Origin: an uncultured delta proteobacterium
GTDB lineage: Bacteria; Desulfobacterota; SM23-61
DNA length: 64,000 nt
Direction of reading: 5' to 3'
NCBI GenBank assembly: GCA_963760605.1
Contig: CAVXFA010000058.1
Coordinates: 14,790-78,789, forward strand
The position numbers and the translations under genes are program-made. Numbering within the stretch: the stretch's first letter is position 1; each line of letters begins with the position of its first letter. Positions 1 through 42,006 of this stretch are shown piece after piece. The notes under the pieces are model-generated. The model had not been told where the DNA came from, did not search any database, and saw only the letters and a program-made list of their open reading frames with translations.

Positions 1-958
1 GGATATCTTCTTTTCGCTTGCGCAAAGGAGGAATGGTCAGGGGGACGACGTTGATGCGGTAGTAGAGGTCGGAACGGAATTCGCCCCGGGCCATCATTTC
101 TTCCAAATTTTTATTGGTCGCCGAGATCAGACGCACATCCACGCTGACCGTCTTCATCCCTCCCACGCGGACAAATTCTCGCTCTTGCAGGGAACGGAGG
201 ATTTTGGCCTGGGTAGGCAGGCTCAGTTCCGAGACTTCATCCAGAAAAAGGGTGCCCTGGTGGGCTAGTTCAAAATGTCCGATGCGCCGGCTCTGGGCGT
301 CGGTAAAAGCACCCTTCTCATGTCCGAAAAGTTCGCTCTCGATCAGCGTCTCGGGTATGGCCGCGCAGTTTACAGCCACAAAAGGTTTGTCTTTCCGCAA
401 GCTGTTGTAGTGGATGGCTCGGGCGACTAACTCTTTTCCCGTTCCGCTCTCCCCGTGGATTAAGACCGTCGAATTTTTCTCGGCGATTTGCCGAATGGTA
501 GAATAGATTTCTCGCATCTCTTTGGATTTGCCGATGATGTTATCGAAACGGTACCGCTCCGCTACCTCTTCCTGCAATCTTCGGTTCTCGATTTTTAGGT
601 CGCGACTTTCTAAGGCCTTTTCGGCCAACAACATCAGTTCTTCCACGTCGAATGGCTTGTTGATGTAATCATAGGCTCCAAGTTTCATCGCTTCCACGGC
701 GGTTTTTACCATCTTGGTGGCTGTAAGCATGACCACAGGAGTCAGGGGCTGAATCTGCCGGATTTCCTTCAGCATCTCCATGCCGTCCTTCTCGGGCATG
801 ATGATATCCAGAAAGATCAGGTCTGGTTCTTCCTTCTGGATCTTCTCCCAGGCCTCTGTGGAACTGCCAGCCAGGATCACCTGATAATCCTTCTTGAAGA
901 TCATCCGTAACGAATCCCGCACGCTCAATTCATCATCGACAATCAAAATCTTACGCAT
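1..958 (-). CDS. Sigma-54-dependent response regulator (REC + AAA+; NtrC/AtoC family), 3' end runs off the window
   Basis: Manual translation from ATG at 958 gives [25 protein letters not shown], then LIFLDIIMP (phospho-Asp), Walker A GESGTGKE, and [15 protein letters not shown]...GTLFLDEV. Absent from the ORF track because it is truncated by the window edge. Confidence 0.95.
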
Positions 959-2908
959 GGCTTTCCTTTATGGTTCCTCTCTCGGCTGAAATAGCCACTG
1001 GGAACCGAAGACGAATGGCCGTCCCGGCTCCTTCCCCTAAACTGACCCGCATCTCCCCCCCATTGCGCACCATCACCTTACGGGCCAGCGCCAAACCCAA
1101 ACTCCAATTCTCATACTCCAACCCTGCTCCCCCGCCCTCCTCTCGACGCATCCCCCGCAGAATCCCATTCTGACCCTCATACCAAACCCGCAACTCCACA
1201 AACCCCGGCCGACCCTCCCTACCCCTCCTCTCCCCCAACCCCGTTGACAACCGCAAGGACTTCTGCTCGCTCCCCTTCAAAAACACATGCCCCAAAACGC
1301 TCCGCAACACAAACCCCAACTGCACCTCATCAAAAAGTACCGCCGGCAACCCCTCCCCCAACTCGGTCACCCACCGCACCCCCCACTGATCTAACTCCTT
1401 CTCCTTCCGCTTGAGAACCTCCCCCAACCTGAAGTTCAAATCATTCCCCACCAACCGCGGAACCGAAAACTGCGTATACTCTAAAAGACTCTCCAAAAGC
1501 TCATTGATCCGCTTCACATCCAGGCTCACCAACCGAGAAAACTGCTCCCGAAACTCGGCATCCTCGTACTTCTCCGGCAGAAGATAAGCAAAAGTGCTGA
1601 TCGCTACCAAAGGATTCTTGATCTCATGGGCCAAGATCGAAAGAGTCGCGTCGAACAAGGACTTCCCTTCTTCCACCGGCAAGGTCGACAACGGCAAAAC
1701 CCCTTCCCCGGCCTGCTTCCCCTCCCCCAAAGAAGCCCATGCCTCCTCACCCGAAAAACTAAAAACCAAATCCTCCGGCAATACCAACTCCCCTTCCTTC
1801 AAAACCACCGACCGCAAAACCACACTCTCCAACTCCCGCAAATTCCCAGGCCAATAATACTGCTCCAACACCTGCAACGCCTCCAAAGAAAACTTCTTCC
1901 GCACCCAATCCCCCGACCCCTGCTCCTGCAAAACCTCACCCACCATCCGCGGAATCTCTTCCCGCCTCTCCCGCAACGGCGGCAAAACCACTCTCAATAC
2001 CTCCAAACCCTGATAAAGATCCCCCCGAAACCTCCCCGCCGATACCGCCCGAGCCAACGAAAACTTAGACGAAGATATCACCCGCACCTCAACCCCCATC
2101 CCCTCCCAACCAGGCCAACCCAACCCCTGACCATGCAAAAGATCCAAAAGAACCCCCTGCAAATCCCACCCTAAACTCTCCACCTCCTCAAAAAAAAGAG
2201 TCCCAGAAACACTCGCCCCACCCCCCCATCCGCCAACCAAAGGGCAAGCCTCTCCCGCAACCCCTCCACCGTCAACTCCCGACAAAAAAACCGCAAAAAC
2301 GGCCGACCCCTCCACGACCCCAACAAATGAATCGCCCTGGCCACCCCACTCCGACCCGTCCCCTCCTCCCCCTGAATGAATACCGGCAACGATGAACCCG
2401 CCACCTTCAAAACCCTCTCCCGCACCCCCACAGCCACCCGCGAAGAATAAAACCATGACTTGATCCGCTCTTCCACCGACAGAATCCGCCGCTCTCCCCC
2501 CCTCTCCTCCACCCAATCCCTCTGCAAAAGAAGCGCCTCCACCTTCTCCCGCAATGACTCCACCCCAAAAGGCTTGCTCAACCCATCACTTAAGGGCAAA
2601 ACAAACCTCTTCTCCCGCGCCACACCCTCCCCCATCAGCAAAAGAAGCGGCAACCGCGGCTGCACCTGGCGCAGAGCCCGAAAAAAAGACTCGTAAAAAA
2701 ATAGGGGCAGATCCACCCCCACCAGCACAATCTCCACCTCCTCCCGCCCCACCACCTCCAGGGCCTCGGGCAGATCACTCACCGTCAACACCACATACTC
2801 ATCCTTCAGGATCATCCAGAGCGAAGTGCGCACGCTGGAAGAAGAATCCACCACCAGCACTTTCCGCTTCCGCCCTTTATTTCGCAGGGCCACCCCGCCC
2901 TCCGGCAT
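951..2908 (-). CDS. Degenerate hybrid: pseudo-receiver + sigma-54-activator-like AAA domain + HisKA/degenerate HATPase; one frameshift near 2216-2227
   Basis: ORF 2171-2908 gives a receiver-like N-terminus ([20 protein letters not shown]) and [14 protein letters not shown] 951-2516 continues [11 protein letters not shown]..., [30 protein letters not shown]. The frames join in the C4-A-C7 tract at 2216-2227. Confidence 0.8.
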
Positions 2909-5012
2909 TCAACGGCAGATGGACGCGGAAACTCGTCCCCTTGCCCACTTCACTCTCCAAATCGATAAACCCCCCATGTTCATGGATGATCTGGTAACTG
3001 ATGGCCAAACCCAACCCGCTGCCCATCAGGCCGAGTGGAAAAAAAGGGATCGAAGATACGGTCTAAATTCTCCTTGGGGATCCCAACCCCTGTGTCCCGC
3101 ACTTCGATTTGAACGAACCGCTCGCTGGTTTCCTCTCGAAGTACCTGCACGACCCGGGTCTCAACCCAGATCTGCCCTTGCCCGGGGATTGCCTGGACGG
3201 CATTCAGGAGTACATTCAGCAGCACCTGTTTGATCTGTTCTGCATCCACCATGACCAGAGGGAGATGGGGGAGCAGTTCTTGGAAATCGTAATGTTCTTC
3301 TTCCGGGCTTCGGTGATAATCAAAAATTCCATTTTTTCGATGAGGGCATTCACATCTTCCCCGCGCAGATTGGGCTCCGAGGGCCGGGCAAATCCTAAAA
3401 GTTCGTTGATCAAGGTGGTAAGGCGGTCAATTTCCCCGGAGGCGACCTTGAGAAAATAATTACGAAACTCCTCATCCTCCAAACGCTCGGGAAGGAGCTG
3501 GGTAAAGGTTTTGATGGACACCAGGGGGTTGCGGATCTCATGGGCCAGACTGGAAATCAAAGTCCCCAGAGAGGCTAGGCGGTCCGCCCGACGCATGAAC
3601 TTCTGTGATTTTTTCAGATTTTCATAAAGGTTGGCGTTCTCAATGGCGATGGCCAGCTGGTTGGCCAGGGTATTCAGAAGGTCGAGGTCTTCTCGATAAT
3701 ACATCTCTTCCCGGCTCTTGTGCCCCAGGTTAATAAACCCGATCAACCGGTCCATATAAATAAGCGGCAAGCAGACTTCTGCCTGCAATCCAATCATCAT
3801 ATCCAAAAACTCTTTCTCTTCTCGCCGCCTCGGATTTCTTTCAATTTCGGCCCGGACAACCGCTTCCTTCTTTTCCTGCAGCCAGCGAATGCAGGGATCG
3901 CCGGACTTAAATGACGTATTCTCCAGATTATTCTCTGATGAGCCCCGCGCCAAGGCCGAACGAAAAATCTCTTTTTCTGGACGTAAAGGAAAATGGAGAT
4001 GCGCGACACCCCCATGCTGCGCTCCACTGTCTCGGCCAGCATGTGCAAAAGCCGATTCAGATCTACCATGGTCACCAGGCGCTTGCTGAAATTTGTCCAG
4101 AACCCGGTGGTAATAATATTTGTCTTTGACGATGATCTGTTGCATCGTCCGATCCATTCGCTCTTTGACCTTCTGGAAACTTAAAGCTGCCGCGACGCCG
4201 ACCACGAGGAGCAATAAAGAGAAGGATAAATCTGCTTGCTGGTAAAAATATTTTTCCAAAAAAATGATGATAAACATCGCAGGAACACCCAGAATGAATA
4301 TAGAAAAAATGTATGCCAGCCCCTTAGCCATGAAAAGACTTAGATCCATAAGGCGATGCTGGACGACGGAATAGACCGCAATTAAAAGGCCGATGCTAAC
4401 AACGACGCTTCCTAAAGGATAAACCCGCAACCCAAATACGGGCAAAAAGTTCAGGCTGCCCAGGGTAAAACTTACCCCGACGGCCAGAAAAAAGTACTTC
4501 AGCCTCTGCCGATGATAACTGTCGGCGTGAGTGTACCCCTGACCCATATACAAAAAGGCGATGAGGATAGCGATGATAAATTGGAAGAGGAAAAGATAGT
4601 ATAGAGGGCCACCTTTGAAAGAATATCCCCAAGGATAAACGATTAAATCTTCGATAAAGTAGCGGGTCGAACTAATCGCTGCCAGAACACCCGAGAGGCC
4701 GTAAAAAATCATAAGGATTCCCCTGCTTCGTCGGGAAAGTCCTTGGGGATTGGTAAAAAGAAAGGCAAAATGCAGGAAGGTCGGGGGAATGAAAAGAACC
4801 GGAATCCGGAAAATTCCTCCCCAAAGGTGAGCGAACTCAGCATTGGGACTGAGGAGGAGTCCGGCCCACTCAACGTTCCACAAAGAAACGCATAAAAGCA
4901 TGGTAGCAAAGGATTTATTAACTGGATTGGGCTGTTTTTTGGAGTAAATAAAAAGGCTCACGAGGAGATACGTTAAAGCGGCGATGATCGGAGGGAGGGC
5001 ATAGATGTTCAC
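2877..5012 (-). CDS. Membrane sensor histidine kinase (N-terminal multi-TM/7TM-type region, GAF, HisKA, HATPase_c), carrying about four indels
   Basis: Hydrophobic N-terminus, GAF-like [17 protein letters not shown]...LAIAIENA, and H-box LAHEIRNPL. HATPase pieces ([40 protein letters not shown]) lie in successive frames. Indels are near 4090, 3980, 3275 and 3023; the restored stop is at 2877-2879. Confidence 0.9.
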
Positions 5013-5134
5013 TTCATCTCTCCTTCACGGCGCAAAGGAGGAGGTGGCTGTGGCCCAGGAGTTTCCGGTGCGGGGGGAACCGCTCAGAGAATTGCTTATA
5101 AGAAAGAGCCATCAAATTCCACAGTCGCTTTGCC

Positions 5135-5885
5135 CATTCCCAGGGGCCGATAGACGGCGTGCAGGCCATCCTAATTCGACCAGTCATAATCGATCATGCG
5201 GTCTTCTTCCTCAACCTTTCTTTTTAACTCTGTTTCCAGCATAGGCATCAAAATGAAAAACTCCGCGTGGGCACCCTTTTCTCGAACTAAGAAATCCACA
5301 GGGTTAGGGAGTCGTTCCTCATCCTTGCCTAAATGAAGGGGTGCCTGCCCGCCCCACCGAAGTTTTAGGGGGATTAAAGCCTTGAAAAGCTCACGGGTGT
5401 AGGCCTTATTGCTTGACTATATTATCGTCAATAAAAAAGATTTTCTTGACATTGTCTTGCCTTATTTCTTGCGCCACTTCTTCCACCGGCCGGCATCGCT
5501 ATCTACCCTAAAAATTTTTGGTCGCCGAGCAAAATTCACAGTTAACAGGACGCCCCCTTCCAGCCCAAATTGGAAAGTTAATCTTCGAGGGGCGGTATCG
5601 GTCTTTTCTTCAACTTTTTTTTCCTCTTTTTTTGAATCCATCGCCAATCCGGTTAGCGCGAGGAGCTTGAGGAGTCATGAAACCAATGGACACTGGGTCT
5701 GCTGGATCGTCGAATGACACGTCTTCAAACAAAGTATTCATCAATGGTTTGAACCTCAAAATCTGCGGAAGTTAGGGAAGCCAGAAAAGGCAGGCTCAAG
5801 CGTGGGAACATTAATTTTTTTGGCTTTGTGAATTCTTTCTCCATCAATTAACTGGGGATGGTGAATCAACAATGATCTCAATATA
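5135..5885 (-). pseudogene. Decayed cobalamin-binding radical SAM protein
   Basis: Manual translation gives collinear fragments: KKLMFPRLSLPFLASLTSADFEVQTIDEY / EDVSFDDPADPVSIGFMTPQAPRANRIGDGFKKRGKK / GRGRPVNCEFCS (CxxxCxxC with first Cys to Arg) / RCRPVEEVAQEI..KIFFIDDNIV / NKAYTRELFKALIPLKLRWGGQ / VDFLVRE..FFILMPM..MIDYDWSN*DGLHAVYRPLGM. There are stops, frameshifts and internal deletions. Confidence 0.85.
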
Positions 5886-5913
5886 CCTATCCTCGAAGGA
5901 GTTCTTGAAAAGC

Positions 5914-7224
5914 TTATACCCTCCTATAAACCACCACCGCGTTTGTTCCCCCTAAGCCGAAGCAATTGGCCATGGCGATCTGAATATCTTTTTTTCTCGC
6001 CTCTTGGGGAACGTAATCTAGGTCTAATTCCGGGTCAGGAACTTCATAATTGATGGTCGGTGGAAGGACCCCTTCGCGTAAGGCCAAGCACGCTGCAATA
6101 CTCTGCATGGCGGTCGCTCCGGCCATTGCGTCCCCCGTCGCGGCTTTGATAGAACTTACAGCCAATTTATATGCGTGATCCCCGAATACTTTTTTAATCG
6201 CTTGACTCTCTTTTTTATCCAGTATGACGCCTGAATAAGCGTGTCCGCAGATATACCCGACATCTTCAGGTCTCAACGAAGTATGAGCCAGAGCAATTTG
6301 AAAGGCTTTGATTATATTCCCTGCTTCCGGGCTGAAGAAAATTGAGTCGGAAGCATCGTTGGTCAGCCCGAATCCGAGGATTTCGGCGTAAATCCTTGCT
6401 TCCCGTTTTTGGGCATGCTCCAATTCCTCTATGATCAAAGTTCCCGCCCCCTCCCCCAAAATATATCCTGTTCTTCTTCTGTCGTAAGGGCACATGGCTC
6501 TCTTAGGATCGCCATTTAGGGAAGTCATGGATTTGGAGGCAGAATACAATCCGAAGGTCAGGGGATAAATGGGCGTATCCGTTCCGCCGGCAACCAAAAT
6601 TTCCGCCAGGCCGCTGGAAATGACCTGGTATGCATTCACGATGGCCATGCTTCCCGAAGAGCACCCGGTAGAAACCGCCATATTATACCCATGAATTCTG
6701 AAAGCTTCCGCCAGCGCTCCAATCATGGCATTGTGGTTCATCAATCCCACGAAGGAGGGGTGGACCCGCTTCAGACCTCGTTCATAAAAAGTGGCTCCAA
6801 ATTTTTCATAGATATCCATAGGGCCCAATGCGGTCCCATAAATCAGACCTACCCGATAGGGGTCTTCCTTCCCCAAATCGAGGTTGGCATCTTCGATGGC
6901 TTTTTGGGTAGATACAATGGCGAATTGGGTTCCGCGGGAAAGTCGGCGGGCACTTTTGGGATCTATGTAATCCGTGGCATCGAAATTATTTACCTCCCCC
7001 GCAAACTTGCAGGGATAAGAAGAAGCGTCAAAATGGGTGACCATCCCTATGCCGCATCTTCCGGAGATCAAAGCCTCCCAGAAGGCCTCCTTGCCGATCC
7101 CGATCGGCGAGACGACCCCCACCCCCGTGACCACCACGCGCTTTGGCAGAACCGATCCTTTTTTCGTAGTGGACCTTTGGGAGAAGTTCTTGAAAAATGG
7201 CAGCTTCAAGAGACCGGACCCCAT
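5914..7224 (-). CDS. fabF: Beta-ketoacyl-ACP synthase II-like (FabF family) with atypical active site
   Basis: KRVVVTGVGVVSPIG, catalytic Cys in STGCSSG, first His in GHAYSG, and C-terminal NCFGLGGTNA. The second His position reads TGDAMAG. The true start may be near the PKRVVV segment rather than 7224. Confidence 0.85.
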   Translation of the reverse strand: MGSGLLKLPFFKNFSQRSTTKKGSVLPKRVVVTGVGVVSPIGIGKEAFWEALISGRCGIGMVTHFDASSYPCKFAGEVNNFDATDYIDPKSARRLSRGTQFAIVSTQKAIEDANLDLGKEDPYRVGLIYGTALGPMDIYEKFGATFYERGLKRVHPSFVGLMNHNAMIGALAEAFRIHGYNMAVSTGCSSGSMAIVNAYQVISSGLAEILVAGGTDTPIYPLTFGLYSASKSMTSLNGDPKRAMCPYDRRRTGYILGEGAGTLIIEELEHAQKREARIYAEILGFGLTNDASDSIFFSPEAGNIIKAFQIALAHTSLRPEDVGYICGHAYSGVILDKKESQAIKKVFGDHAYKLAVSSIKAATGDAMAGATAMQSIAACLALREGVLPPTINYEVPDPELDLDYVPQEARKKDIQIAMANCFGLGGTNAVVVYRRV

Positions 7225-7312
7225 TTTGTTTTTTTATGGGTTTAAATCATACGAAATGCCCTGCAGGAATGTAAAATACCGCTCATTCCCTCCAATTCTA
7301 TCGTGATATTCG

Positions 7313-7360
7313 CCCCTCACCCCATCTCTCCCCATCGAGGGAGAGGCGAGCGTGAGAGGG
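7313..7360. repeat. REP-like palindrome (CCCTCACC..CTCTCCC-loop-GGGAGAG..GTGAGAGGG)
   Basis: Imperfect inverted repeat; a similar copy lies at about 49485-49539. Confidence 0.6.
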
Positions 7361-7480
7361 AAACAATCAAAGAACTTAATGCATGGGTATTAAATCTGTA
7401 AACTTGTCAAGGGTTTAATGAAGAAATAATATATGAAAGCTCAGAAAAGTCAATAATTTTTTTTGAATTTGATTTATTTC

Positions 7481-8268
7481 TCAATATTCCTGGCCGTGGA
7501 AAGTATTGACTTCCACGAATTTTCCGACGGGCTTGTAGATTTTTGGGGAGACCCATGGTGCTCCGAGAATTCCATCCTGGATTGCCCAACTTCGTCCGCG
7601 TACCGATTTCTCCGCTCCTTTCCTGCGGAACGGGCTGGACCCATCGAGACGCTCGCACAATTTCCCCCCAGGAATTCCCGATCAATTTCCTCCATCTGTT
7701 TCCGTCCTTCTAAGTACCCAAAACCGTTCCGTTCGTATTGAATGGCATTATGGTAGAAGAGGGCTTCTCCAGAGATGATGGAAACGCCCAACCGGGAGGC
7801 AAAGCGTTCCAGGAGAAACATGAACTCCCTCAGCAGTCTCAGCCCAGGACGAACCTGCCCCGGGGCCAGGCCGGCTTTCATCGCCCGTTCTTCCTCGGCT
7901 ACATTTCTTGCGGCCGTCCCAAAGAGAGTATCTTTTCCCCGGGTATCCTGATCGATTTGGAAGCGTTCTGCCCGGGGGTCGTTGATCACGATGAAAGAAA
8001 GCTCCAGGTTGTCCATGAAGGGGGTATCGGAGAGCTGCAGAAAGAAAATAGAGTCCTGGTCTGTAGCCCGCCACCTGACGTCGACAGAGGTGAACCCATG
8101 GGTTTCGGGCGTGTGGAACTGGACCACCTTCTCGCCTTGCCGGTTGAGGAAGGTATTCCGGTCAATCCCGAAGAGGGAAAATATGCGGAGAGGGATCAGG
8201 CCGCGGTAGAGCTTGATCCGTTCTTCAGGGGGTAGATGGTTGACTTCGTAGATCGAACGGTATTTCAT
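7481..8268 (-). CDS. Hypothetical protein, possibly divergent GNAT-like; frameshift near 7665
   Basis: ORF 7474-8268 reads well up to IDREFL. The frame then shifts in a C6 tract and continues GKLCERLDGSSPFRRKGAEKSVRGRSWAIQDGILG... to TGA at 7481-7483. HNAIQYERNGF resembles GNAT motif B. Confidence 0.65.
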
Positions 8269-8674
8269 TCATCAACTGGCGGGCAAAGAACCGAGGGATC
8301 GGAGAAAGGTCAAAGATCACTCTCCTCAGAGCGTCAGGGGGCTCCCATCTCACCATCCGGCCGACCCTATCGACCCTTTCCACCTTCGATCCAGAAATTT
8401 TATTCTTCAGATCCTCAGAGTATTTTTCGGGGGCATTGCGGTCTTTCCGACCGCCCGCCAAAAGCGAGGGCAGGCGAATCTCTTTCACCTCCTTCGTAAT
8501 GTCGAATGGGTCACAGGCCATCCTGTCACGGTAACAGACACACGAGCTCACCTCAGCCCACTCTCTCTGCTGGCGTGGTCATGAATCCAAAACGAGTCTC
8601 CACCTAACGGGGGGAGTTTTTGCTTTCTTCTCCGAGTAATGCACTTTTGTTTCATGGACCATCCCTTTGGGCAT
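8225..8674 (-). pseudogene. Alpha/beta-hydrolase remnant (N-terminal and C-terminal pieces, middle deleted)
   Basis: MPKGMVHETKVHYSEK.. from 8674, then a stop, then ACDPFDITKEVKEIRLPSLLAGGRKDRNAPEKYSEDLKNKISGSKVERVDRVGRMVRWEPPD. This matches the hydrolase C-terminal pattern, but the catalytic His (GH) reads GR and no GxSxG motif was seen. Confidence 0.55.
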
Positions 8675-8770
8675 CGATTGCTCCTTGGAAAATTTTTTCT
8701 CAGCAAACCTGAGCACGCAGATCCAAGTGTTTGAAAATTATCATACAACCAGCCCTTTTTCAAGTCTTCA

Positions 8771-8799
8771 TTGACAAAAAAACTAGGTGTATATATATT
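8771..8799 (+). promoter_or_regulatory. Sigma-70-type promoter upstream of suhB
   Basis: TTGACA (8771-8776), 17 nt spacer, TATATT (8794-8799). Confidence 0.65.
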
Positions 8800-8906
8800 T
8801 ATTTATCCCCTCCCCGTCCGAAATATAGTGGAAAATACCCGAACAAAAAGGAAGTCTCAGAACCCTACCCGAAATCCAACTACCCCGAAAGGAATGATGG
8901 GAAAAC

Positions 8907-9686
8907 ATGGAATCCTTTGAACAGGTGGCCATCTTGGCTGCGAAAAAGGCCGGGCTTCTTTTAAAGAGGAGACTCGGCCAAAAAAGACGGGTGAACTATA
9001 AGGGGGCCGTAAATTTAGTCACGGAAATGGACCTCTTCTCTGAGAAACTCATCGTCTCCGAAATCCGCCAGCGCTACCCCAACCATAGCTTCCTGGCTGA
9101 GGAAAAAACCTCCACGCAGGAAAAGTCTCCCTACCGCTGGATTATCGACCCTTTGGACGGAACAACGAATTATGCCCATGGCTACCCGATCTTCTGCGTT
9201 TCCCTTGCTCTGGAAAAGGAAGGAGAGGTCATCCTCGGTGCGGTCTACGACCCTATGAGAGATGAACTCTTCCTGGCAAAGAAAGGAAAAGGAGCCCGCC
9301 TCAACGGGTGGAAAATTCATGTCTCCTCGACCGCGAAACTATCTCGAAGCCTGCTGGCTACAGGGTTTCCTTATGACCTGCGAGAGAGCCCGGTCAATAA
9401 CTTCGACCATTTTCGCAATTTCGCGCTGCGCGTCCAGGCGGTCAGAAGAGCCGGCTCTGCAGCCCTAGACCTATGCTATGTGGCCGCGGGGCGTTTCGAT
9501 GGATTTTGGGAGATGAAGCTGGGTCCCTGGGACATGGCGGCCGGAAGCCTGATCGTCAGGGAAGCCGGGGGAGAGGCAACTGATTTTCTAGGCAGGCGCC
9601 TCGGCTTGGATGGGAAACATGTCTTAGCCAGTAATGGAAAGATTCACCGGGAAATGATCCGGGTCTTGAAACTGGGACACCTTTAA
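8907..9686 (+). CDS. suhB: Inositol monophosphatase family protein
   Basis: LAEE, WIIDPLDGTTNYAHG, RRAGSAALDLCYVAAGRFDG, WDMAAG motifs. Confidence 0.95.
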   Translation: MESFEQVAILAAKKAGLLLKRRLGQKRRVNYKGAVNLVTEMDLFSEKLIVSEIRQRYPNHSFLAEEKTSTQEKSPYRWIIDPLDGTTNYAHGYPIFCVSLALEKEGEVILGAVYDPMRDELFLAKKGKGARLNGWKIHVSSTAKLSRSLLATGFPYDLRESPVNNFDHFRNFALRVQAVRRAGSAALDLCYVAAGRFDGFWEMKLGPWDMAAGSLIVREAGGEATDFLGRRLGLDGKHVLASNGKIHREMIRVLKLGHL

Positions 9687-9720
9687 AAACAGTGAAGAGT
9701 TAAGAGTTGGGAGGTAAAGG

Positions 9721-11037
9721 TTAAAAGAAAGAATCTTCTCTGTTTCCTTGAGACTTGTTACCGCTGCTATTTATAGGTCGTTTTTTTCTCCTTATGGGTG
9801 AATCCGCTTTAAGAGAATCGTAAAGAGATAAGATTTTTTTGGCAATAATTGGCCAACCGAATTGCTTGACTCTGGCCCTTGCTGCCGCGACCAGCTTCCT
9901 TTTCAGAGAGGGGGTCTCGATGACCTCGCGGATTCGTTCGGCCAGCAACAGCCAATCTCCTTCCGGAACTAAGATCCCAGTTTGGCCATCCTCTACTGTG
10001 TACTGGAGTCCCCCAACCCGAGAAGCGATCACTGGCGTACCGCAGGCCATAGCTTCTAAAGCCACCATGCCGAAGGATTCGTAGCGCGAGGGTAGGACAA
10101 GGGCTTCCGCTGCCGAATAGAAGTAGGGGAGCAAATCCTGCCGCTGAGATCCCCAAAAGGCGATGCGGTCCTGTAGCTTCATCCGGGCAACCATCCTCCG
10201 TAACCGTTGCATTTCCTCGTTTTCAGTTTGCGGGTCTACATCCAGTTCTCCTCCGATAATGATGACCCCTAGTTCCCGACTGCCTCTCATCGGTTTACGG
10301 GAAAGGTGGTGGATGGCCTGGATTAATACATCAATTCCCTTTATGGCATCGATGCGCCCGACGAAAAGAATGAACTGCCTTTGCGAAAGTCCAAGGAACT
10401 TTTGGGCCTTTAATGAAGGGATGGGTTTGAAGAGGTTCAGATCCACCCCACAGGGGATCACTTTGATTTTTGCAGGTTGGGCTTGGTGGTGAAGGATCAT
10501 CTGCTCTCTTTCCCATGGACTCGGCGCGACCAAGCAATCGGCAAAATCCATGATTTGTCCCTCGATCGCCAACCTCCCCTGTGGCTCTTTCTCTTCTTTT
10601 TTTCTATTCACAGCATTTTTTAGGGCCCCCAGAGTGTGGAACATATGCACCAAGGGGATGGACCATTGGCGCTTCAGTTGGCCTCCGACCCATCCGGAAA
10701 GCCAATAATGGGAGTGTACCAAATCGTAAGAAATTTTTTCTGATTCGGCGAATTGCCTGACTCCCGAGATAAACTTTGGCAAATACTGGAGAAGCTCGTT
10801 CTTGAGAACCGGTTCTTCGGGCCCAGCCTTGAGGTGGATGACCCGGGCGTTTCGGCCGAGATGAACGATGCGGGAGATGTGGGGGTTCTGCGAGCGAGTG
10901 AACACATCGATTCGCAATCCCAGACGGGTCATTTGCCGGCTCAACTCGCGAACGTAGACGTTCATTCCTCCCGTTTCCTTCCCGCCGAGGGCAGCGAGAG
11001 GGCAACTATGCACGCTAAGGACGGCGACGTGTTTCAT
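9721..11037 (-). CDS. mshA: GT4 glycosyltransferase, MshA-like (D-inositol-3-phosphate glycosyltransferase family)
   Basis: VAVLSVHSCPLA..GGMNVYV, HSHYWLSG, HTLGALKN, FVGRI, ESFGMVALEAMACGTPV. Confidence 0.8.
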   Translation of the reverse strand: MKHVAVLSVHSCPLAALGGKETGGMNVYVRELSRQMTRLGLRIDVFTRSQNPHISRIVHLGRNARVIHLKAGPEEPVLKNELLQYLPKFISGVRQFAESEKISYDLVHSHYWLSGWVGGQLKRQWSIPLVHMFHTLGALKNAVNRKKEEKEPQGRLAIEGQIMDFADCLVAPSPWEREQMILHHQAQPAKIKVIPCGVDLNLFKPIPSLKAQKFLGLSQRQFILFVGRIDAIKGIDVLIQAIHHLSRKPMRGSRELGVIIIGGELDVDPQTENEEMQRLRRMVARMKLQDRIAFWGSQRQDLLPYFYSAAEALVLPSRYESFGMVALEAMACGTPVIASRVGGLQYTVEDGQTGILVPEGDWLLLAERIREVIETPSLKRKLVAAARARVKQFGWPIIAKKILSLYDSLKADSPIRRKKRPINSSGNKSQGNREDSFF

Positions 11038-12038
11038 TCTTTGATGACTCGAATGCGAAAGATTTTTTCCTCCTTTCCTCCCAGATGATACTTGTAGTCC
11101 TCCCTCCCCCTCAAGAAATTAAAACTAGCCATCCCCTTATCGATGGCCTGGCGAATACAATGAGCGGCCAGAACAATCCCCGGACTGAACCGGGCAAACT
11201 GAGGGTCATAGCCTGAATTGTAAACGTATTCCGTCCCCGCAAAATCGAAAGAAAGAAACGCGGCCACCTCTTTCCCCCCGACTTTTAAAAAAGATAAATT
11301 CAGCCAGCCCCTTTCCTGGAAGCGGATGGATACATCGCGAAAGAAAGCCTGCATCTCTGGGCTCATGAACTGCGCCTTATCTTTCCGGCTTTTTCGGTGG
11401 AGATCAAAAAAAATTTCCATTTCTCTGAAAAGGGGGGGAGTTCCCTCGACCCCCGATATTTCGCAAGAGACTTCTCTCTCCATCCGGCGCATTTTTCGGC
11501 GGAGCTCGTGCCGGTCCTTGGAATTTAATCTTTCCAAAAACATCTCCCAAGTTGCCGGCAGGTCTAGATAAAGGGCAACTTCCTCAACTTCCTGAACCAC
11601 TCGAAAGCCAAAGGATTGCATGAGGGGGGGCAAAAATTGAGCTGTCGGGGAGAACTCGGAGGTTCCGTTGAGCTCCAAATATCCCCAAGGTCCTTCTCCG
11701 AAGAAACGTCCCAGGGCGCCAAAAGCTTCTTCTTCCCGGCCAGAGGCGATGACCAGGTCCCGGTAATCGCAAACGTCTTTACTGCCGACCAAAGTGAGCC
11801 CCTGCTGCCCTTCCTCTCCCGTGGAGGTTGAGAAGGCCCCAACGGCAAGCAAGGCCCCCTCCAGAGCCCGAAAAAGGATGATCTTGGCCTCAAGGGATCT
11901 ACCAAAATGCTTCAGCCAAATTTCAATCCAAAGCGGAGTGAGGAAGGGATTCTGAAAGCGGCTACTAGAGAGGAGAGCTTCCCACTCCCGCATCGAAGCC
12001 TCTGAGTAGGAGTTTGCCTCCAGCAACTCGATGGTCAC
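11034..12038 (-). CDS. GNAT-family acyltransferase (CelD/BcsL-like)
   Basis: FLTPLWIEIW, KDRHELRRKMRR, YNSGYDP..FSPGIVL, FNFLRGREDYKY motifs. Confidence 0.85.
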   Translation of the reverse strand: MTIELLEANSYSEASMREWEALLSSSRFQNPFLTPLWIEIWLKHFGRSLEAKIILFRALEGALLAVGAFSTSTGEEGQQGLTLVGSKDVCDYRDLVIASGREEEAFGALGRFFGEGPWGYLELNGTSEFSPTAQFLPPLMQSFGFRVVQEVEEVALYLDLPATWEMFLERLNSKDRHELRRKMRRMEREVSCEISGVEGTPPLFREMEIFFDLHRKSRKDKAQFMSPEMQAFFRDVSIRFQERGWLNLSFLKVGGKEVAAFLSFDFAGTEYVYNSGYDPQFARFSPGIVLAAHCIRQAIDKGMASFNFLRGREDYKYHLGGKEEKIFRIRVIKE

Positions 12039-12661
12039 TCATGTTCTCCCGTTATCCCCTGGGGGACGGGATAGAAGGGGGTCGCTTTTTCCCGCCCAAC
12101 CGTGGTCTCCAAACCATGCCCTGGGTAAATGATCGTATCCTCAGGGAGGACGAAAATTTTCGCGTAAATGGAGGATAGGATCAACCGCTCATCGGCTCCA
12201 GGGATCGCCGTATTGCCAGGGCCATGGGGGAAAATCGTATCTCCGCTGAAGAGTATTTTCTTGGTAAGAAAGCAGACCCCGCCCGGGGAATGGCCTGGCG
12301 TGTGCAAAACCTTGAGGGTTACATCTCCGAATGTTAGCAGCTGCCCGTCTTCCAGGGAGAATTCCGGCGGTTTTTTCAAGGCGCTGGCATCGCGCGGATG
12401 GATGCCCACAGGGGCCCTAGCATAATTCCTAACCTCTTCCAAACCCCGGATATGGTCCATGTGGCCGTGGGTGATCAGGATATACCGCACCTTTGTTTTC
12501 CTGGTTTCCTCCAAGATGCGTTTGGCCTCGCCTGCTGGGTCAATAATCACACTCTCCTGCGTTCGCGGGCAGATCAGAATGTAACAATTGTTTCCCCAAG
12601 AACCTACTTCTAGCCTTTTGAGTTCCATCCAATTCCTCCAAACCATGTGAGCAGAGGGCAT
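12035..12661 (-). CDS. Metallo-beta-lactamase-fold hydrolase (glyoxalase II-like)
   Basis: THGHMDH, HTPGHSPG, SGDT, PGHG motifs. Confidence 0.92.
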   Translation of the reverse strand: MPSAHMVWRNWMELKRLEVGSWGNNCYILICPRTQESVIIDPAGEAKRILEETRKTKVRYILITHGHMDHIRGLEEVRNYARAPVGIHPRDASALKKPPEFSLEDGQLLTFGDVTLKVLHTPGHSPGGVCFLTKKILFSGDTIFPHGPGNTAIPGADERLILSSIYAKIFVLPEDTIIYPGHGLETTVGREKATPFYPVPQGITGEHE

Positions 12662-12765: not shown

Positions 12766-13698
12766 TTAGAACCCGCTGAAGGGAACAGGAATGAAAGTCA
12801 AAATAAAAACGGCCACAGTCAACCATCCCATGACCATACGTTTCCTGTCCAAAGGGACCCGCCAGTCCACCGGCTGAGGGTGACGGAAGCCCATGATGAA
12901 GAGAAGAAGGCCCCAGAGAAGCCATCCCGGCCAGCCAAAAATTCCAAGAGCCAAAAGGGCCAAGAAAACGTATTTGGATATTTTATTTTGCCTCTCCCCC
13001 AGGAGGGCATAGGCCACATGCCCTCCATCCAGTTGGCCGATGGGTAGGAGATTAAAGGAGGTAACCAAAAGGCCAATCCATCCTGCAAACCCAACGGGGT
13101 GGATGACAATATCGAACCCTGCAGGAACGGGCCCTACGACCAACCAACTGATCAAGGAAAGCAGAAGGGAAGAACCCAAAGTAAGCCCCATATGGCCCTG
13201 CACCATTTTCACTACCGAAAGATGAAAGCCAAGAATGAGGAATGGAATTGAAACCACAACTCCTACCAAGGGGCCGGCCGCTCCAACATCCAAAAGCATC
13301 TTCCGATCGCGGACGGGAGAACGCATTTTGATGAAAGCCCCGAATGTTCCAATAATAAAGGGCAAGGGAGGAGCCGGGATGAAATAGGGCAACGTGACAT
13401 TCAGACCATGTTTCCTGGCGATAAGATAATGACCTAATTCATGAGCTAGGAGGATTCCCATCAGAGAGAAGGAAAAGGGAATCCCCTTGAAAATGTGTGC
13501 GGGATTCTTTAAAGGATCCGCTCCTTCATGCCAGGCCCCCGCCAAAAGGGTCGTAAATACCGTAAGGAAAAAAAGGATGATATTTACAGCGATGCGCGGC
13601 TTTGGGGGTGAAGAGACCCGCAGAGGCTCATCTTCCCAACTTTCAAGCCAGGGTAGCGCCTTTCTTTCTCTTCTAATCCAAAATTTTCTAAAATCCAT
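12766..13698 (-). CDS. Site-2 protease family (M50) intramembrane metalloprotease
   Basis: AHELGH zinc motif, NLLPIGQLDGGH, multiple TM segments. Confidence 0.93.
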   Translation of the reverse strand: MDFRKFWIRRERKALPWLESWEDEPLRVSSPPKPRIAVNIILFFLTVFTTLLAGAWHEGADPLKNPAHIFKGIPFSFSLMGILLAHELGHYLIARKHGLNVTLPYFIPAPPLPFIIGTFGAFIKMRSPVRDRKMLLDVGAAGPLVGVVVSIPFLILGFHLSVVKMVQGHMGLTLGSSLLLSLISWLVVGPVPAGFDIVIHPVGFAGWIGLLVTSFNLLPIGQLDGGHVAYALLGERQNKISKYVFLALLALGIFGWPGWLLWGLLLFIMGFRHPQPVDWRVPLDRKRMVMGWLTVAVFILTFIPVPFSGF

Positions 13699-14880: not shown

Positions 14881-15305
14881 AGAGTTTAACTCTCCTGGCA
14901 AAACGAAAAGGCCTGGCCCCTGGATATCAAGGTGCGGTCACTGGCGGTTGCTTGCTGTTTATCATTGGGGTCGCTGTGTTCGGATACGTGGGATTTAAAG
15001 TTGGCGATGCCTACTGGAACTACTTGGAGGTGCGGCATAAGGTTCGGGAGGCTTTGAATTGGGCGGTTGCCGGTTCACCGAAGGGCGACCCAGAAATTGT
15101 GCAGAAGGTCATTGGCAACGCCCGCGGCGCAGGAACCGAATTTTCCCCTGAGAACATCCAGATCAAACAAACGACGGACACCCTGACCATTATTGTGTCC
15201 TGGGTTCAAGAAGTGGAGTTTCCCTATTATACACTTCCCTTGAAATTTAAGGTGGATCTGAGTGAGGTGAAACGATGGCATAAGGGTGGGCTGATTTTAA
15301 AATGA
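14877..15305 (+). CDS. Hypothetical membrane-anchored protein (DUF4845-like)
   Basis: ATG overlaps the cvpA stop (ATGA). One TM segment (GCLLFIIGVAVFGYVGFKV) is followed by a small exported domain. The ORF-track start at 14241 is spurious upstream extension. Confidence 0.65.
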   Translation: MKSLTLLAKRKGLAPGYQGAVTGGCLLFIIGVAVFGYVGFKVGDAYWNYLEVRHKVREALNWAVAGSPKGDPEIVQKVIGNARGAGTEFSPENIQIKQTTDTLTIIVSWVQEVEFPYYTLPLKFKVDLSEVKRWHKGGLILK

Positions 15306-37918: not shown

Positions 37919-38923
37919 TCAAGGTTTGAGAAGACTCTTGATTTTTGAAAGCCGATTTGACCATTCGGGTCTCTCTTTCCCAATGAAACCCAGGATGCCT
38001 TCCGGGAGAAGAAGGATAATTACTACAAAGAGTAACCCAAAGATGAACAACCAGTGTTCGGTAAAGGCACTGACCATGTCCTGGAGGATAAGGAAAATGG
38101 CCGCCCCCAGAATGGGGCCAAAAAAATTGGACAGCCCCCCTCCCAGGATCGTCATCATGACTACATCTCCCGAAGCCAGCCAGGTCATGTTTTCGGCGAA
38201 GGCACTGGAGATTAACAGGGCATGCAATGCCCCGGCCAGCCCCGAAAAAAGGCCGGAAATCGTCATGGCCACCAGCCGATAGCGATAAATATTGTAACCA
38301 AGAAACAAAGTACGATCCCGGTTATAGCGGATTCCCTTCAGCACCCGGCCAAATGGAGAATGGACAATTCTCCATATAATGATCATCGATATCATGTAGA
38401 AAATTAGAATAAAATAATAGAAATAAAAGGGATTTTTTAAGTCGATCGAAAGGAGGCCGGGAAATTTGATAGGGTATCTGATGATCCCCGCAAAACCGTC
38501 TTCACCCCCCGTCACCTCAGTCCAGCGAAAAGCGATGACGAAGAACATCTGAGTGAAGGCAACCGTCAACAAACCAAAGTAAATTCCACTTTTCCTGACA
38601 ATAACCCGTCCGATGAGAAAGGCAGCGAGGCCTGCCGCAACCATCCCCACGATCAAGGGGACCCAAAGGCCGGTCATGAGATAACGCTGGGTGAGACCTA
38701 GGCCATAAGCTCCGATCCCGAAAAGACAACCATGGCCGAAGGACATCAGCCCTGTATAACCTAACATCAGGTTATAGGCCAAGCAAAAAAGAGAAAATAT
38801 GAGAATCTCCGTCGCCAGAGTCGTATACCCACCCAAGAAGGGTAATAGGTATGGAAAAAAAATATAAAAGACACCCACAAGAAAAATAGGATGGTAGAGA
38901 ATCTCCTTCATTCTTTTCAGCAT
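37919..38923 (-). CDS. livM: ABC permease, LivM-like
   Basis: YNLMLGYTGLMSFGH, TGGEDG, SPFGR, GGLSNFFGP. Confidence 0.92.
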   Translation of the reverse strand: MLKRMKEILYHPIFLVGVFYIFFPYLLPFLGGYTTLATEILIFSLFCLAYNLMLGYTGLMSFGHGCLFGIGAYGLGLTQRYLMTGLWVPLIVGMVAAGLAAFLIGRVIVRKSGIYFGLLTVAFTQMFFVIAFRWTEVTGGEDGFAGIIRYPIKFPGLLSIDLKNPFYFYYFILIFYMISMIIIWRIVHSPFGRVLKGIRYNRDRTLFLGYNIYRYRLVAMTISGLFSGLAGALHALLISSAFAENMTWLASGDVVMMTILGGGLSNFFGPILGAAIFLILQDMVSAFTEHWLFIFGLLFVVIILLLPEGILGFIGKERPEWSNRLSKIKSLLKP

Positions 38924-41231: not shown

Positions 41232-42006
41232 TTAATGGGCTGTCCAGCCGCCATCGACCAGAAGAACATGGCCGGTGACCAGATTGGATGCCTCGGACGC
41301 CAAGTAAATCACTGCCCCGATTACATACTCGGGTTGTCCCATTCGACCCAGAGGAATGTTTCCCAAGACATACTCCCGAAAGCCCTCGTCGGCAAACATG
41401 GATTTTGTGAGCGGGGTTTCGATGAAAGTGGGCGCAATGGCGTTTACGTTGATGTTATACGGGCCCCATTCGATCGCCAAAACTCTGGTTAGGAGATTGC
41501 CCCCCCCCTTTACTGGAGGAGTAAGCTGCCCTCTGGGGAAGCCCAACATGGCCCGCCTGGGAAGAAATATTTATGATCTTCCCCTTTTTCTGCTTGATCA
41601 TCACCCTTCCGACTGTTTGGGCACAGAAGAAGACGTCTTTGAGATTGGTATCGATGATCTTATCCCAGGCCTCTTCGGTCACATCAACCGCCCTCTGGGG
41701 AATGTTGATGCCGGCGTTATTAACGAGAATATCAATCCGGCCGAAACTTTTCACCGATTCCTCCGCCAAGGCCTGGATCTGCGAAAGGTTAGCAATATCC
41801 GTCTGCTGGATGAGAACCCGGCGACCCATTTTTTCTATTGCTGCTCCCACCTTTTTCAATTCGGCGACGGTGCGGCTACAAACCACCACATCCGCTCCGT
41901 ATTTGGCTAAGGCCAGGGAGATGTGATAACCGATCCCTCTCCCGCCACCCGTAACAATGGCCACTTTACCGGAGAGATCAAATTCATAAAAAGGGTTTTT
42001 TTTCAC
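41232..42006 (-). CDS. SDR oxidoreductase (KduD/gluconate-5-dehydrogenase-like), frameshifted in a G9 tract at 41500-41508
   Basis: ORF 41455-42006 has TGGGRGIG, NNAG, YSSSKGG. ORF 41232-41549 continues NLLTRVLAIEWG..NAIAPTFIET..VDGGWTAH. Confidence 0.88.

Follow-up and report, generated by a model that had tools for sequence, protein, structure and literature searches.

A G-loaded, C-purged gene in a ketosynthase-linked sigma-54 signaling cassette of uncultured Deltaproteobacteria

Introduction

Has a bacterial gene that looks degenerate decayed, or has a pressure on one strand reshaped a gene that is still intact? This question is raised by a signaling locus of an uncultured delta proteobacterium, located at one end of a 64,000-nt stretch of DNA (contig CAVXFA010000058.1 of assembly GCA_963760605.1, positions 14,790 to 78,789), which was analyzed as a whole and is called the window here. 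The locus contains a FabF-like ketosynthase (KS), a B12-binding radical S-adenosylmethionine (SAM) enzyme (rSAM), a seven-transmembrane (7TM)/GAF histidine kinase (HK), a protein joining receiver (REC), AAA+ and HisKA domains (RAH), and an NtrC-type sigma-54 activator. An earlier description, made without database searches (the sequence-only reading), had taken RAH for a degenerate pseudo-relay and the KS and rSAM for an eroding arm that synthesizes a signal. We found that RAH owes its odd look to an extreme strand composition and not to decay. The joint explanation that we favor, with a probability of roughly 0.5, is that the locus is a conserved cassette with intact RAH and HK genes, which together form a signaling chain, and that a pressure on the transcript or the non-template strand acts on RAH.

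Strand composition of the RAH gene

Open reading frame (ORF) calls and Pfam searches agreed with the sequence-only reading on five co-oriented genes, all of them on the minus strand, and on overlapping stop and start codons among the last three. HK (2877..5012) and RAH (951..2908) overlap by 32 nt, and RAH and the NtrC-type gene (1..958) overlap by 8 nt. A G-loaded and C-purged tract, delimited on the same strand by composition, change-point and codon-position analysis, coincides with RAH (1021..2980). Over about 1021-2980, the coding strand reached up to 77% G+T in 400-nt windows, compared to a mean of 52% (standard deviation, 4.7%) for the window, and this was the only such compositional region within the 64 kb. 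The coding-strand GC skew of the tract was +0.5 to +0.7 in 100-nt bins. Third codon positions of RAH showed frequencies of.06 for A,.07 for C,.63 for G and.24 for T, while positions 1 and 2 were shifted far less. Similarly, the four-fold degenerate sites of RAH showed.06,.08,.63 and.23 (A, C, G and T), compared to.15,.35,.30 and.20 in 21 other ORFs of the window. Among NNY codons 84% ended in T and among NNR codons 92% ended in G, and Leu codons moved from CTN to TTG. Overall, codons ending in C or A gave way to codons ending in G, and codons ending in T were not enriched.

The skew also extended to predicted nucleic acid structure. Three to nine G-quadruplex (G4) motifs were found per skewed tract versus none in orthologues of normal composition, and the RAH antisense RNA folded at -8 to -17 kcal per 150 nt versus about -37 normally. 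The enrichment of k-mers over synonymous shuffles revealed no repeated motif, such as a Chi-like one, but composition effects only. The skew was relaxed at 1502-1701, which is the H-box region (GC skew of 0.13-0.25). We also observed that the H-box segment of RAH contains an 85-nt stretch with 69% identity to the H-box of HK itself at 3463-3547; the escape of 1502-1701 from the skew may mean either that this segment is strongly constrained or that local conversion took place between the paralogous regions encoding the dimerization and histidine phosphotransfer (DHp) domains. The sole other compositional outlier of the window was located at about 38501-38900, where the plus strand is A-rich (AT skew of +0.42) within minus-strand ORFs.

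Next, we analyzed how widely and for how long the skewed state has existed. The 31-mers of the RAH tract were present in 20 independent metagenomes, and metagenome contigs covered the tract at 98% identity. The nearest relatives, loci L241 and L242 with 92% and 83% nucleotide identity to the window, showed the same RAH composition, and their recent changes were balanced in direction, indicating that the skewed state is at equilibrium. Among RAH orthologues, about 42 had a G+T share at third codon positions (GT3) of 0.48-0.58, five had 0.63-0.66 and six had 0.80-0.88, and the GC skew was graded from 0.3 to 1.0 across lineages. In every skewed locus, the flanking HK and NtrC-type genes were normal, and across the 2.84 Mb of fetched DNA, 600-nt windows as skewed as this one occurred only in RAH genes.

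A tree of RAH and trees of the flanking genes placed the skewed genes in three groups. Clade A, consisting of the window, L241 and L242, is sister to the intermediate loci L162, L164 and L175. Clade B contains L179, L180, L240, P0011, P0022, P0029, P0035 and P0037, and clade C contains L004, L194, P0096, P0099 and P0101. All skewed clades had a GC skew of +0.75 to +1.0 at four-fold degenerate sites. The AT skew varied by clade, with T exceeding A in clade A, and clades B and C being purine-rich. In clade C, the skew set in about 75 nt into the gene and ended sharply after the DHp region. Thus, the RAH skew is old, stable, graded among lineages and confined to the gene, and it occurs in three clades of RAH.

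Domain structure and conservation of RAH

Pfam searches, the corrected reading of the gene, its homologues and AlphaFold were then employed to analyze the RAH protein. Response_reg, Sigma54_activat, AAA_lid_14 and HisKA domains were found, so the REC-AAA-HisKA architecture given by the sequence-only reading stood. At E<=1e-30, 532 homologous proteins were obtained. A comparison of 18 diverse members, with skewed proteins among them, showed no variation in Walker A (GEEGTG), the Glu of Walker B, YWPGN or the H-box HEIKNP. The window RAH was 60% identical to the L081 orthologue of normal composition, which is similar to the identity between pairs of normal orthologues. Its dN/dS was 0.44, compared to 0.12 for NtrC and 0.15-0.19 for pairs of normal or intermediate orthologues, and its dS of 0.33 was close to that of the neighboring NtrC gene (0.31). 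A good Shine-Dalgarno sequence, GGAGGG, precedes the GTG start at 2893. The AlphaFold model of the skewed P0011 protein (mean pLDDT, 73.7) showed REC, AAA+, a DHp hairpin and an alpha/beta fold resembling the catalytic and ATP-binding (CA) domain with a disordered lid, and a disordered Gly/Glu/Arg-rich linker joined these modules. The invariant motifs, the dN/dS of 0.44, the 532 homologues and the P0011 fold spoke against the "degenerate" and "pseudo-relay" parts of the earlier description. RAH is therefore a selected, foldable protein family and not a decayed pseudo-relay.

The N-terminal two-thirds of RAH (REC, AAA+ and lid, with Walker A and B kept) resemble NtrC1-type bacterial enhancer-binding proteins, such as Aquifex NtrC1 (PDB 1NY5) and ZraR. 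The AAA+ domain is of the sigma-54 type, as indicated by its PF00158 and PF25601 matches, and the nearest solved structure for the N-terminal part is NtrC1. However, unlike these proteins, RAH has no GAFTGA loop, a direct reading giving LEKFMRKLSFWLQNS for this segment, and no helix-turn-helix (HTH) domain, both being absent throughout the family. Instead, its C-terminus is a kinase core of HisKA and a CA-like domain, for which the nearest solved structure is ZraS (9JFJ). Because GAFTGA and HTH are missing and the C-terminus is a kinase core, RAH is predicted to be unable to act as a conventional sigma-54 activator. The DHp region matched PF00512 and carries the phospho-acceptor His in HEIKNP. 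The CA domain is weak; HATPase_c scored 22.3 bits in L001, below the threshold of 26.4, and no match was obtained in the window. The window receiver contains VGVDLP and SKPF and has a single acidic residue at the DD site, and the phospho-acceptor Asp is replaced by Glu in some members of the clade. In RAH, the putative middle tier of the signaling chain, a GAFTGA-less enhancer-binding-protein ATPase is fused to a kinase core.

Some members of the family varied further. A clade of RAH proteins of 528 aa (L084 4388-5971; L085 5911-7494) has no receiver, and a short Pro/Gly-rich leader precedes AAA+. In skewed RAH proteins (P0035, P0011 and P0037, and L004 at about 14900-15050), the AAA+ lid is connected to DHp by expanded Gly/Glu/Lys/Arg linkers of low complexity; these linkers are encoded by purine-only runs and predicted to be disordered. 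In addition, a single metagenome-assembled genome (MAG) contained two contigs with RAH 3' ends of 88% identity, L086 (JAHJQK010000084) and L001/L081 (JAHJQK010000050), which suggests that the gene is present twice or that the bin mixes strains.

Frame breaks in HK and RAH

As the sequence-only reading had proposed, Pfam identified HK as a 7TM/GAF histidine kinase, with HisKA_7TM, GAF, HisKA and HATPase_c domains. Its frame is broken in the window assembly by indels near 4095, 3981, 3266 and 3022. We aligned contigs from public metagenomes of wetlands, peat and sediment (X1, X3, X5 and X7) to the window. All covering contigs in these four datasets contradicted the HK indels, including X1 contigs that were otherwise identical to the window, and removal of the four indels restored an intact kinase of 711 aa. 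RAH has one frame break near 2220, in a run of seven G, which was absent from three of four other datasets; the corrected RAH is 652 aa long. Since the metagenome contigs contradicted the HK indels and, for the most part, the RAH break, both genes are probably intact in natural populations, and the frame breaks in the window are probably assembly errors. A short-chain dehydrogenase/reductase (SDR) gene at 41247-41982 was similarly split by a frame break beside a run of nine C near 41497. Indels in HK, RAH, this SDR gene and a hypothetical gene near 7665 suggest that single-base errors are scattered over the window assembly. Apparent gene decay in MAGs may therefore arise from assembly indels or from composition-driven amino-acid change.

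The NtrC-type gene was identified by Pfam, by its codon composition and by its L242 orthologue. It is cut by the edge of the window, so its 3' part lies outside; in L242 the orthologue is 455 aa long and carries HTH_8. REC, an AAA+ domain (Sigma54_activat) and GAFTDA were present in the window copy, in agreement with the NtrC-type regulator of the earlier description, and its composition was normal. Among NCBIfam models, this last regulator resembled PrsR, AtoC and NtrC, with all scores below the cut-offs. HK and this regulator are partly like the PrsK/PrsR pair of XrtA/PEP-CTERM systems: HK matched TIGR02916 over its whole length and the NtrC-type gene matched TIGR02915. However, the scores were below the cut-offs (144 versus 300 for HK and 448 versus 502.6 for the NtrC-type gene), an extra RAH tier stands between the kinase and the regulator of the window, and no exosortase or PEP-CTERM genes were seen.

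Organization of the cassette

Genome and metagenome scans showed that KS lies upstream of HK-RAH-NtrC in 19 of the 19 related loci with enough flanking sequence. The order of the cassette is hypothetical gene, KS, optional rSAM plus SAM-dependent methyltransferase (MT), HK, RAH and NtrC-type gene. In L001, KS is followed by an MT of 243 aa, an rSAM of 436 aa, an HK of 711 aa, a RAH of 632 aa and the start of NtrC. The hosts are Thermodesulfobacteriota-like bacteria ("Deltaproteobacteria"), uncultured relatives of sulfate reducers that live in wetlands, peat and sediment. Relatives of KS at 67-73% identity were found in MAGs labeled Deltaproteobacteria, Thermodesulfobacteriota or Proteobacteria, and an exact look-up of the window KS protein gave no matching record. 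The cassette would define an unstudied three-tier sigma-54 signaling chain, firmly tied to a FabF-like enzyme, in anaerobes that are abundant in wetlands.

KS (5914..7224, minus strand) is an intact ORF of 436 aa, identified by Pfam, TIGR03150, structure matches and motif alignment, with N- and C-terminal ketoacyl-synt domains. Its match to the fabF equivalog TIGR03150 covered both domains in full and its nearest solved structures were beta-ketoacyl-acyl carrier protein synthase (KAS) II enzymes (PDB 4LS5 and 1J3N), like FabF. However, it scored 440 bits against the TIGR03150 cut-off of 493.75 and passed only the PRK07314 subfamily model in NCBIfam, it carries GHAxS where FabF has AHGTST, and it is fixed beside a two-component system without acpP, fabD or fabG. 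A tblastn search of the 64 kb with E. coli queries found neither an acyl carrier protein (ACP) nor FabD nor a second KS, and the SDRs were generic and distant; this absence is a lead and not a test. The enzyme thus deserves the name of atypical FabF that it had been given, and the absence of fab genes nearby also held. Motif alignment with an E. coli FabF reference showed the active-site Cys and the first catalytic His in KS. At the second catalytic His (H340 in E. coli FabF), the window has Asp and L164 has Gln, while eight other orthologues have His. As aligned, the window KS thus appears to be without the His required for decarboxylative condensation. The likeness to DarB in the earlier description was loose, since the window KS is similar to FabF/KAS II and its ACP_syn_III match fell under the threshold, unlike the synthases of DarB/PpyS-type synthase-sensor pairs, which are KAS III/FabH-like.

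The interval between KS and HK consists of 900 nt of gene remnants. Decay of the B12 rSAM, as claimed earlier, was confirmed by tblastn with the intact L001 and L085 orthologues: three fragments (5135..5899, minus strand) correspond to only residues 1-81, 156-253 and 315-377 of the intact protein, and they contain internal deletions, in-frame stops and frameshifts. The CX3CX2C motif is broken and reads GRGRPVNCEFCS, its first Cys being replaced by Arg. In contrast, the intact L001 enzyme has B12-binding and radical SAM domains. The same relic was observed in metagenome contigs of relatives at about 94% identity; therefore, rSAM is a true pseudogene. An MT relic that had been overlooked (5020..5133, minus strand) was identified by tblastn with the L001 and L085 methyltransferases, and by Pfam on the intact L001 protein. 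In this relic, residues 6-30 are fused to 231-243, with about 200 codons deleted.

Among the related loci, rSAM was intact in about eight and MT in seven, both were absent from about ten, and relics remained only in the window and L162. Erosion of the rSAM arm occurred in the window, in line with the sequence-only reading, and loss was repeated in relatives. The close tie of KS to the kinase and regulator genes was borne out, whereas rSAM proved to be an optional and not a core member of the cassette. Furthermore, rSAM was present in none of five skewed and in eight of 16 normal lineages, a difference that was not significant once relatedness was considered.

Discussion

The skew in RAH is real and robust. 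Regarding its origin, we lean toward a pressure on the transcript or the non-template strand, because what the skewed genes have in common is a large excess of G over C, whereas deamination would leave an A-to-G plus C-to-T pattern. Such a persistent pressure would drive G far above C. Rho prefers C-rich, G-poor and unstructured RNA. The sense RNA of RAH is the opposite of Rho utilization (rut) logic; being G-rich and C-poor, it would be a poor Rho substrate and would readily form R-loops. In contrast, the C-rich and unstructured antisense RNA fits this logic exactly and would be an ideal Rho substrate. The pressure could be either selection or an R-loop-linked mutation bias. Literature searches gave no precedent for such a recoding of an entire gene, and we know of no reported case. 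G-skewed R-loop zones and the asymmetry of the mitochondrial H-strand are established cases for comparison. Like the R-loop zones of immunoglobulin class-switch regions and CpG-island promoters, RAH has a G-rich and C-poor non-template strand over 1-2 kb, G-clusters, G4 motifs and a sharp onset. However, unlike these zones and the mitochondrial H-strand, RAH is an intact bacterial coding gene under purifying selection, and its C is replaced by G and not by T. We tentatively suggest, with less than even confidence, that RAH is a natural bacterial counterpart of such zones, and that in this one gene family the skew arose three times or more, through gene-specific and strand-specific selection for a Rho-immune or R-loop-forming transcript or through a self-reinforcing, R-loop-linked mutation bias. 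As RAH orthologues with skews of 0, 0.3 and 0.9 occur in the same operon context, they form a clean natural test for the roles of Rho, R-loops or transcription-linked mutation in bacterial strand asymmetry.

Several points weigh against a pressure on the transcript or non-template strand as part of the joint explanation. To act on some 600 silent sites in a regulatory gene, selection would have to be unusually strong, and about 42 RAH orthologues of normal composition manage without the skew. The pressure also shifts amino acids and raises dN/dS from about 0.15 to 0.44, which makes a mutation bias or a conversion-like force look more likely. The sharp border within the gene and the spared first 75 nt in clade C are unexplained by Rho avoidance alone. 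The flux between A/C and G/T at four-fold degenerate sites was 0.158 in RAH versus 0.187 in NtrC, a value between the expectations for selection and for mutation bias. The independence of the three clades rests on neighbor-joining trees of few genes. None of the RNA-seq runs searched for the RAH tract contained the locus, and the sigma-54 promoter pattern gave 16 matches against 24.6 expected, none of which was intergenic at the locus.

What else could have produced such a gene? If the non-template strand of RAH were chronically single-stranded, for example in R-loops on a transcript with poor ribosome coverage, damage and repair could deplete C and A in a manner that reinforces itself as the RNA gains G. 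An exposed strand rich in G+T is the classic mark of single-stranded DNA, as in mitochondrial and leading-strand DNA, and an origin purely by mutation would account for the shift at all codon positions, the raised dN/dS, the sharp physical borders in clade C, the intermediates and the three to nine G4 motifs per tract. Nevertheless, we regard this as rather doubtful: C was replaced mainly by G without enrichment of T-ending codons, clades B and C are purine-rich and not G+T-rich, the silent-site rate of RAH does not exceed that of NtrC, the good Shine-Dalgarno sequence is kept, and flanking genes of the same operon are untouched. A one-strand hypermutation, of deaminase type (A-to-G plus C-to-T) or other, followed by decay into a pseudogene would likewise leave an A- and C-poor coding strand, a frame break and weak Pfam scores. 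Such a history is very improbable, given that 87% of the silent sites are G or T with a much smaller shift at positions 1 and 2, that dN/dS stands at 0.44 with invariant catalytic motifs and a dS equal to that of the neighboring gene, that relatives diverged by 8-17% share the same equilibrium composition, and that the frame break is missing in three of the four other datasets. The deaminase model in particular was rejected by the comparison of clades, the dependence on codon position and the change of C to G as much as to T. The few stops in the C/A-rich antisense strand, with ORFs of up to 291 aa, could point to an antisense overlapping gene, or the tract could be a target like those of diversity-generating retroelements. 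Neither idea seems credible to us, since the antisense ORFs are fragmentary, are spread over all three frames and lack conservation from clade to clade, and since neither a second copy of the tract nor an ORF with a YxDD motif like that of reverse transcriptases occurs in the 64 kb; furthermore, the tract (1.4-1.9 kb) far exceeds the variable regions of such elements. Although the window assembly does contain indel errors and the MAG of L004 is based on long reads, an artefact of sequencing or assembly, such as methylation-induced long-read miscalls, has a negligible chance of being the explanation. Independent assemblies contain the 31-mers of the tract and cover it at high identity, miscalls could not generate the dependence on codon position, and the JGI short-read contigs L179, L180, L194, L241 and L242 share the skewed state.

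With regard to the signaling chain in the explanation that we favor, the membrane kinase would phosphorylate the RAH receiver. The GAFTGA-less AAA+ ring of RAH, together with its DHp/weak-CA module, may then hand the signal on to NtrC or gate its passage, and NtrC would act at sigma-54 promoters. KS might act together with this HK-RAH-NtrC chain on an acyl or lipid cue and not function in bulk fatty-acid synthesis. The sequence-only reading had instead proposed that KS and rSAM make a modified acyl signal sensed by the adjacent kinase, and that this arm is eroding here. The strict linkage of KS to HK-RAH-NtrC, the intact trios of KS, MT and B12-rSAM in L001, L002, L085 and L163, the real relics of rSAM and MT in the window, and the 7TM and GAF sensor of HK, which suits a membrane or small-molecule cue, are in line with this proposal. 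However, about half of the lineages lack rSAM and MT though the chain persists, and the synteny fits equally well with regulators that control a KS operon. Furthermore, H340 of KS is lost in the window lineage and L164, yet the KS and kinase ORFs are intact, and this loss beside intact signaling genes fits poorly with a simple scheme in which the synthase makes the signal. Overall, the synthase-sensor proposal appears unlikely.

Neighboring genes

A conserved hypothetical gene upstream of KS (7474..8268, minus strand) was found by tblastn in two frames, being frameshifted near 7665. It precedes KS in six loci (among them L001, L002, L004, L164 and L174) and had no family match in Pfam or NCBIfam. 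An Rfam search of 1-9000 gave a single sub-threshold chance match and no known RNA family at the region.

Beside the cassette, 8907-12661 contains genes for an inositol monophosphatase (plus strand), an MshA-like GT4 glycosyltransferase (363 bits for TIGR03449, below the 462 required), a FemAB/GNAT-like acyltransferase and an MBL-fold hydrolase. This gene group, which is followed by an M50 peptidase gene at 12766-13698, resembles a small-molecule pathway of the inositol-glycoside or thiol type. The same gene set also flanks the KS cluster in L001, L002, L004 and L005.

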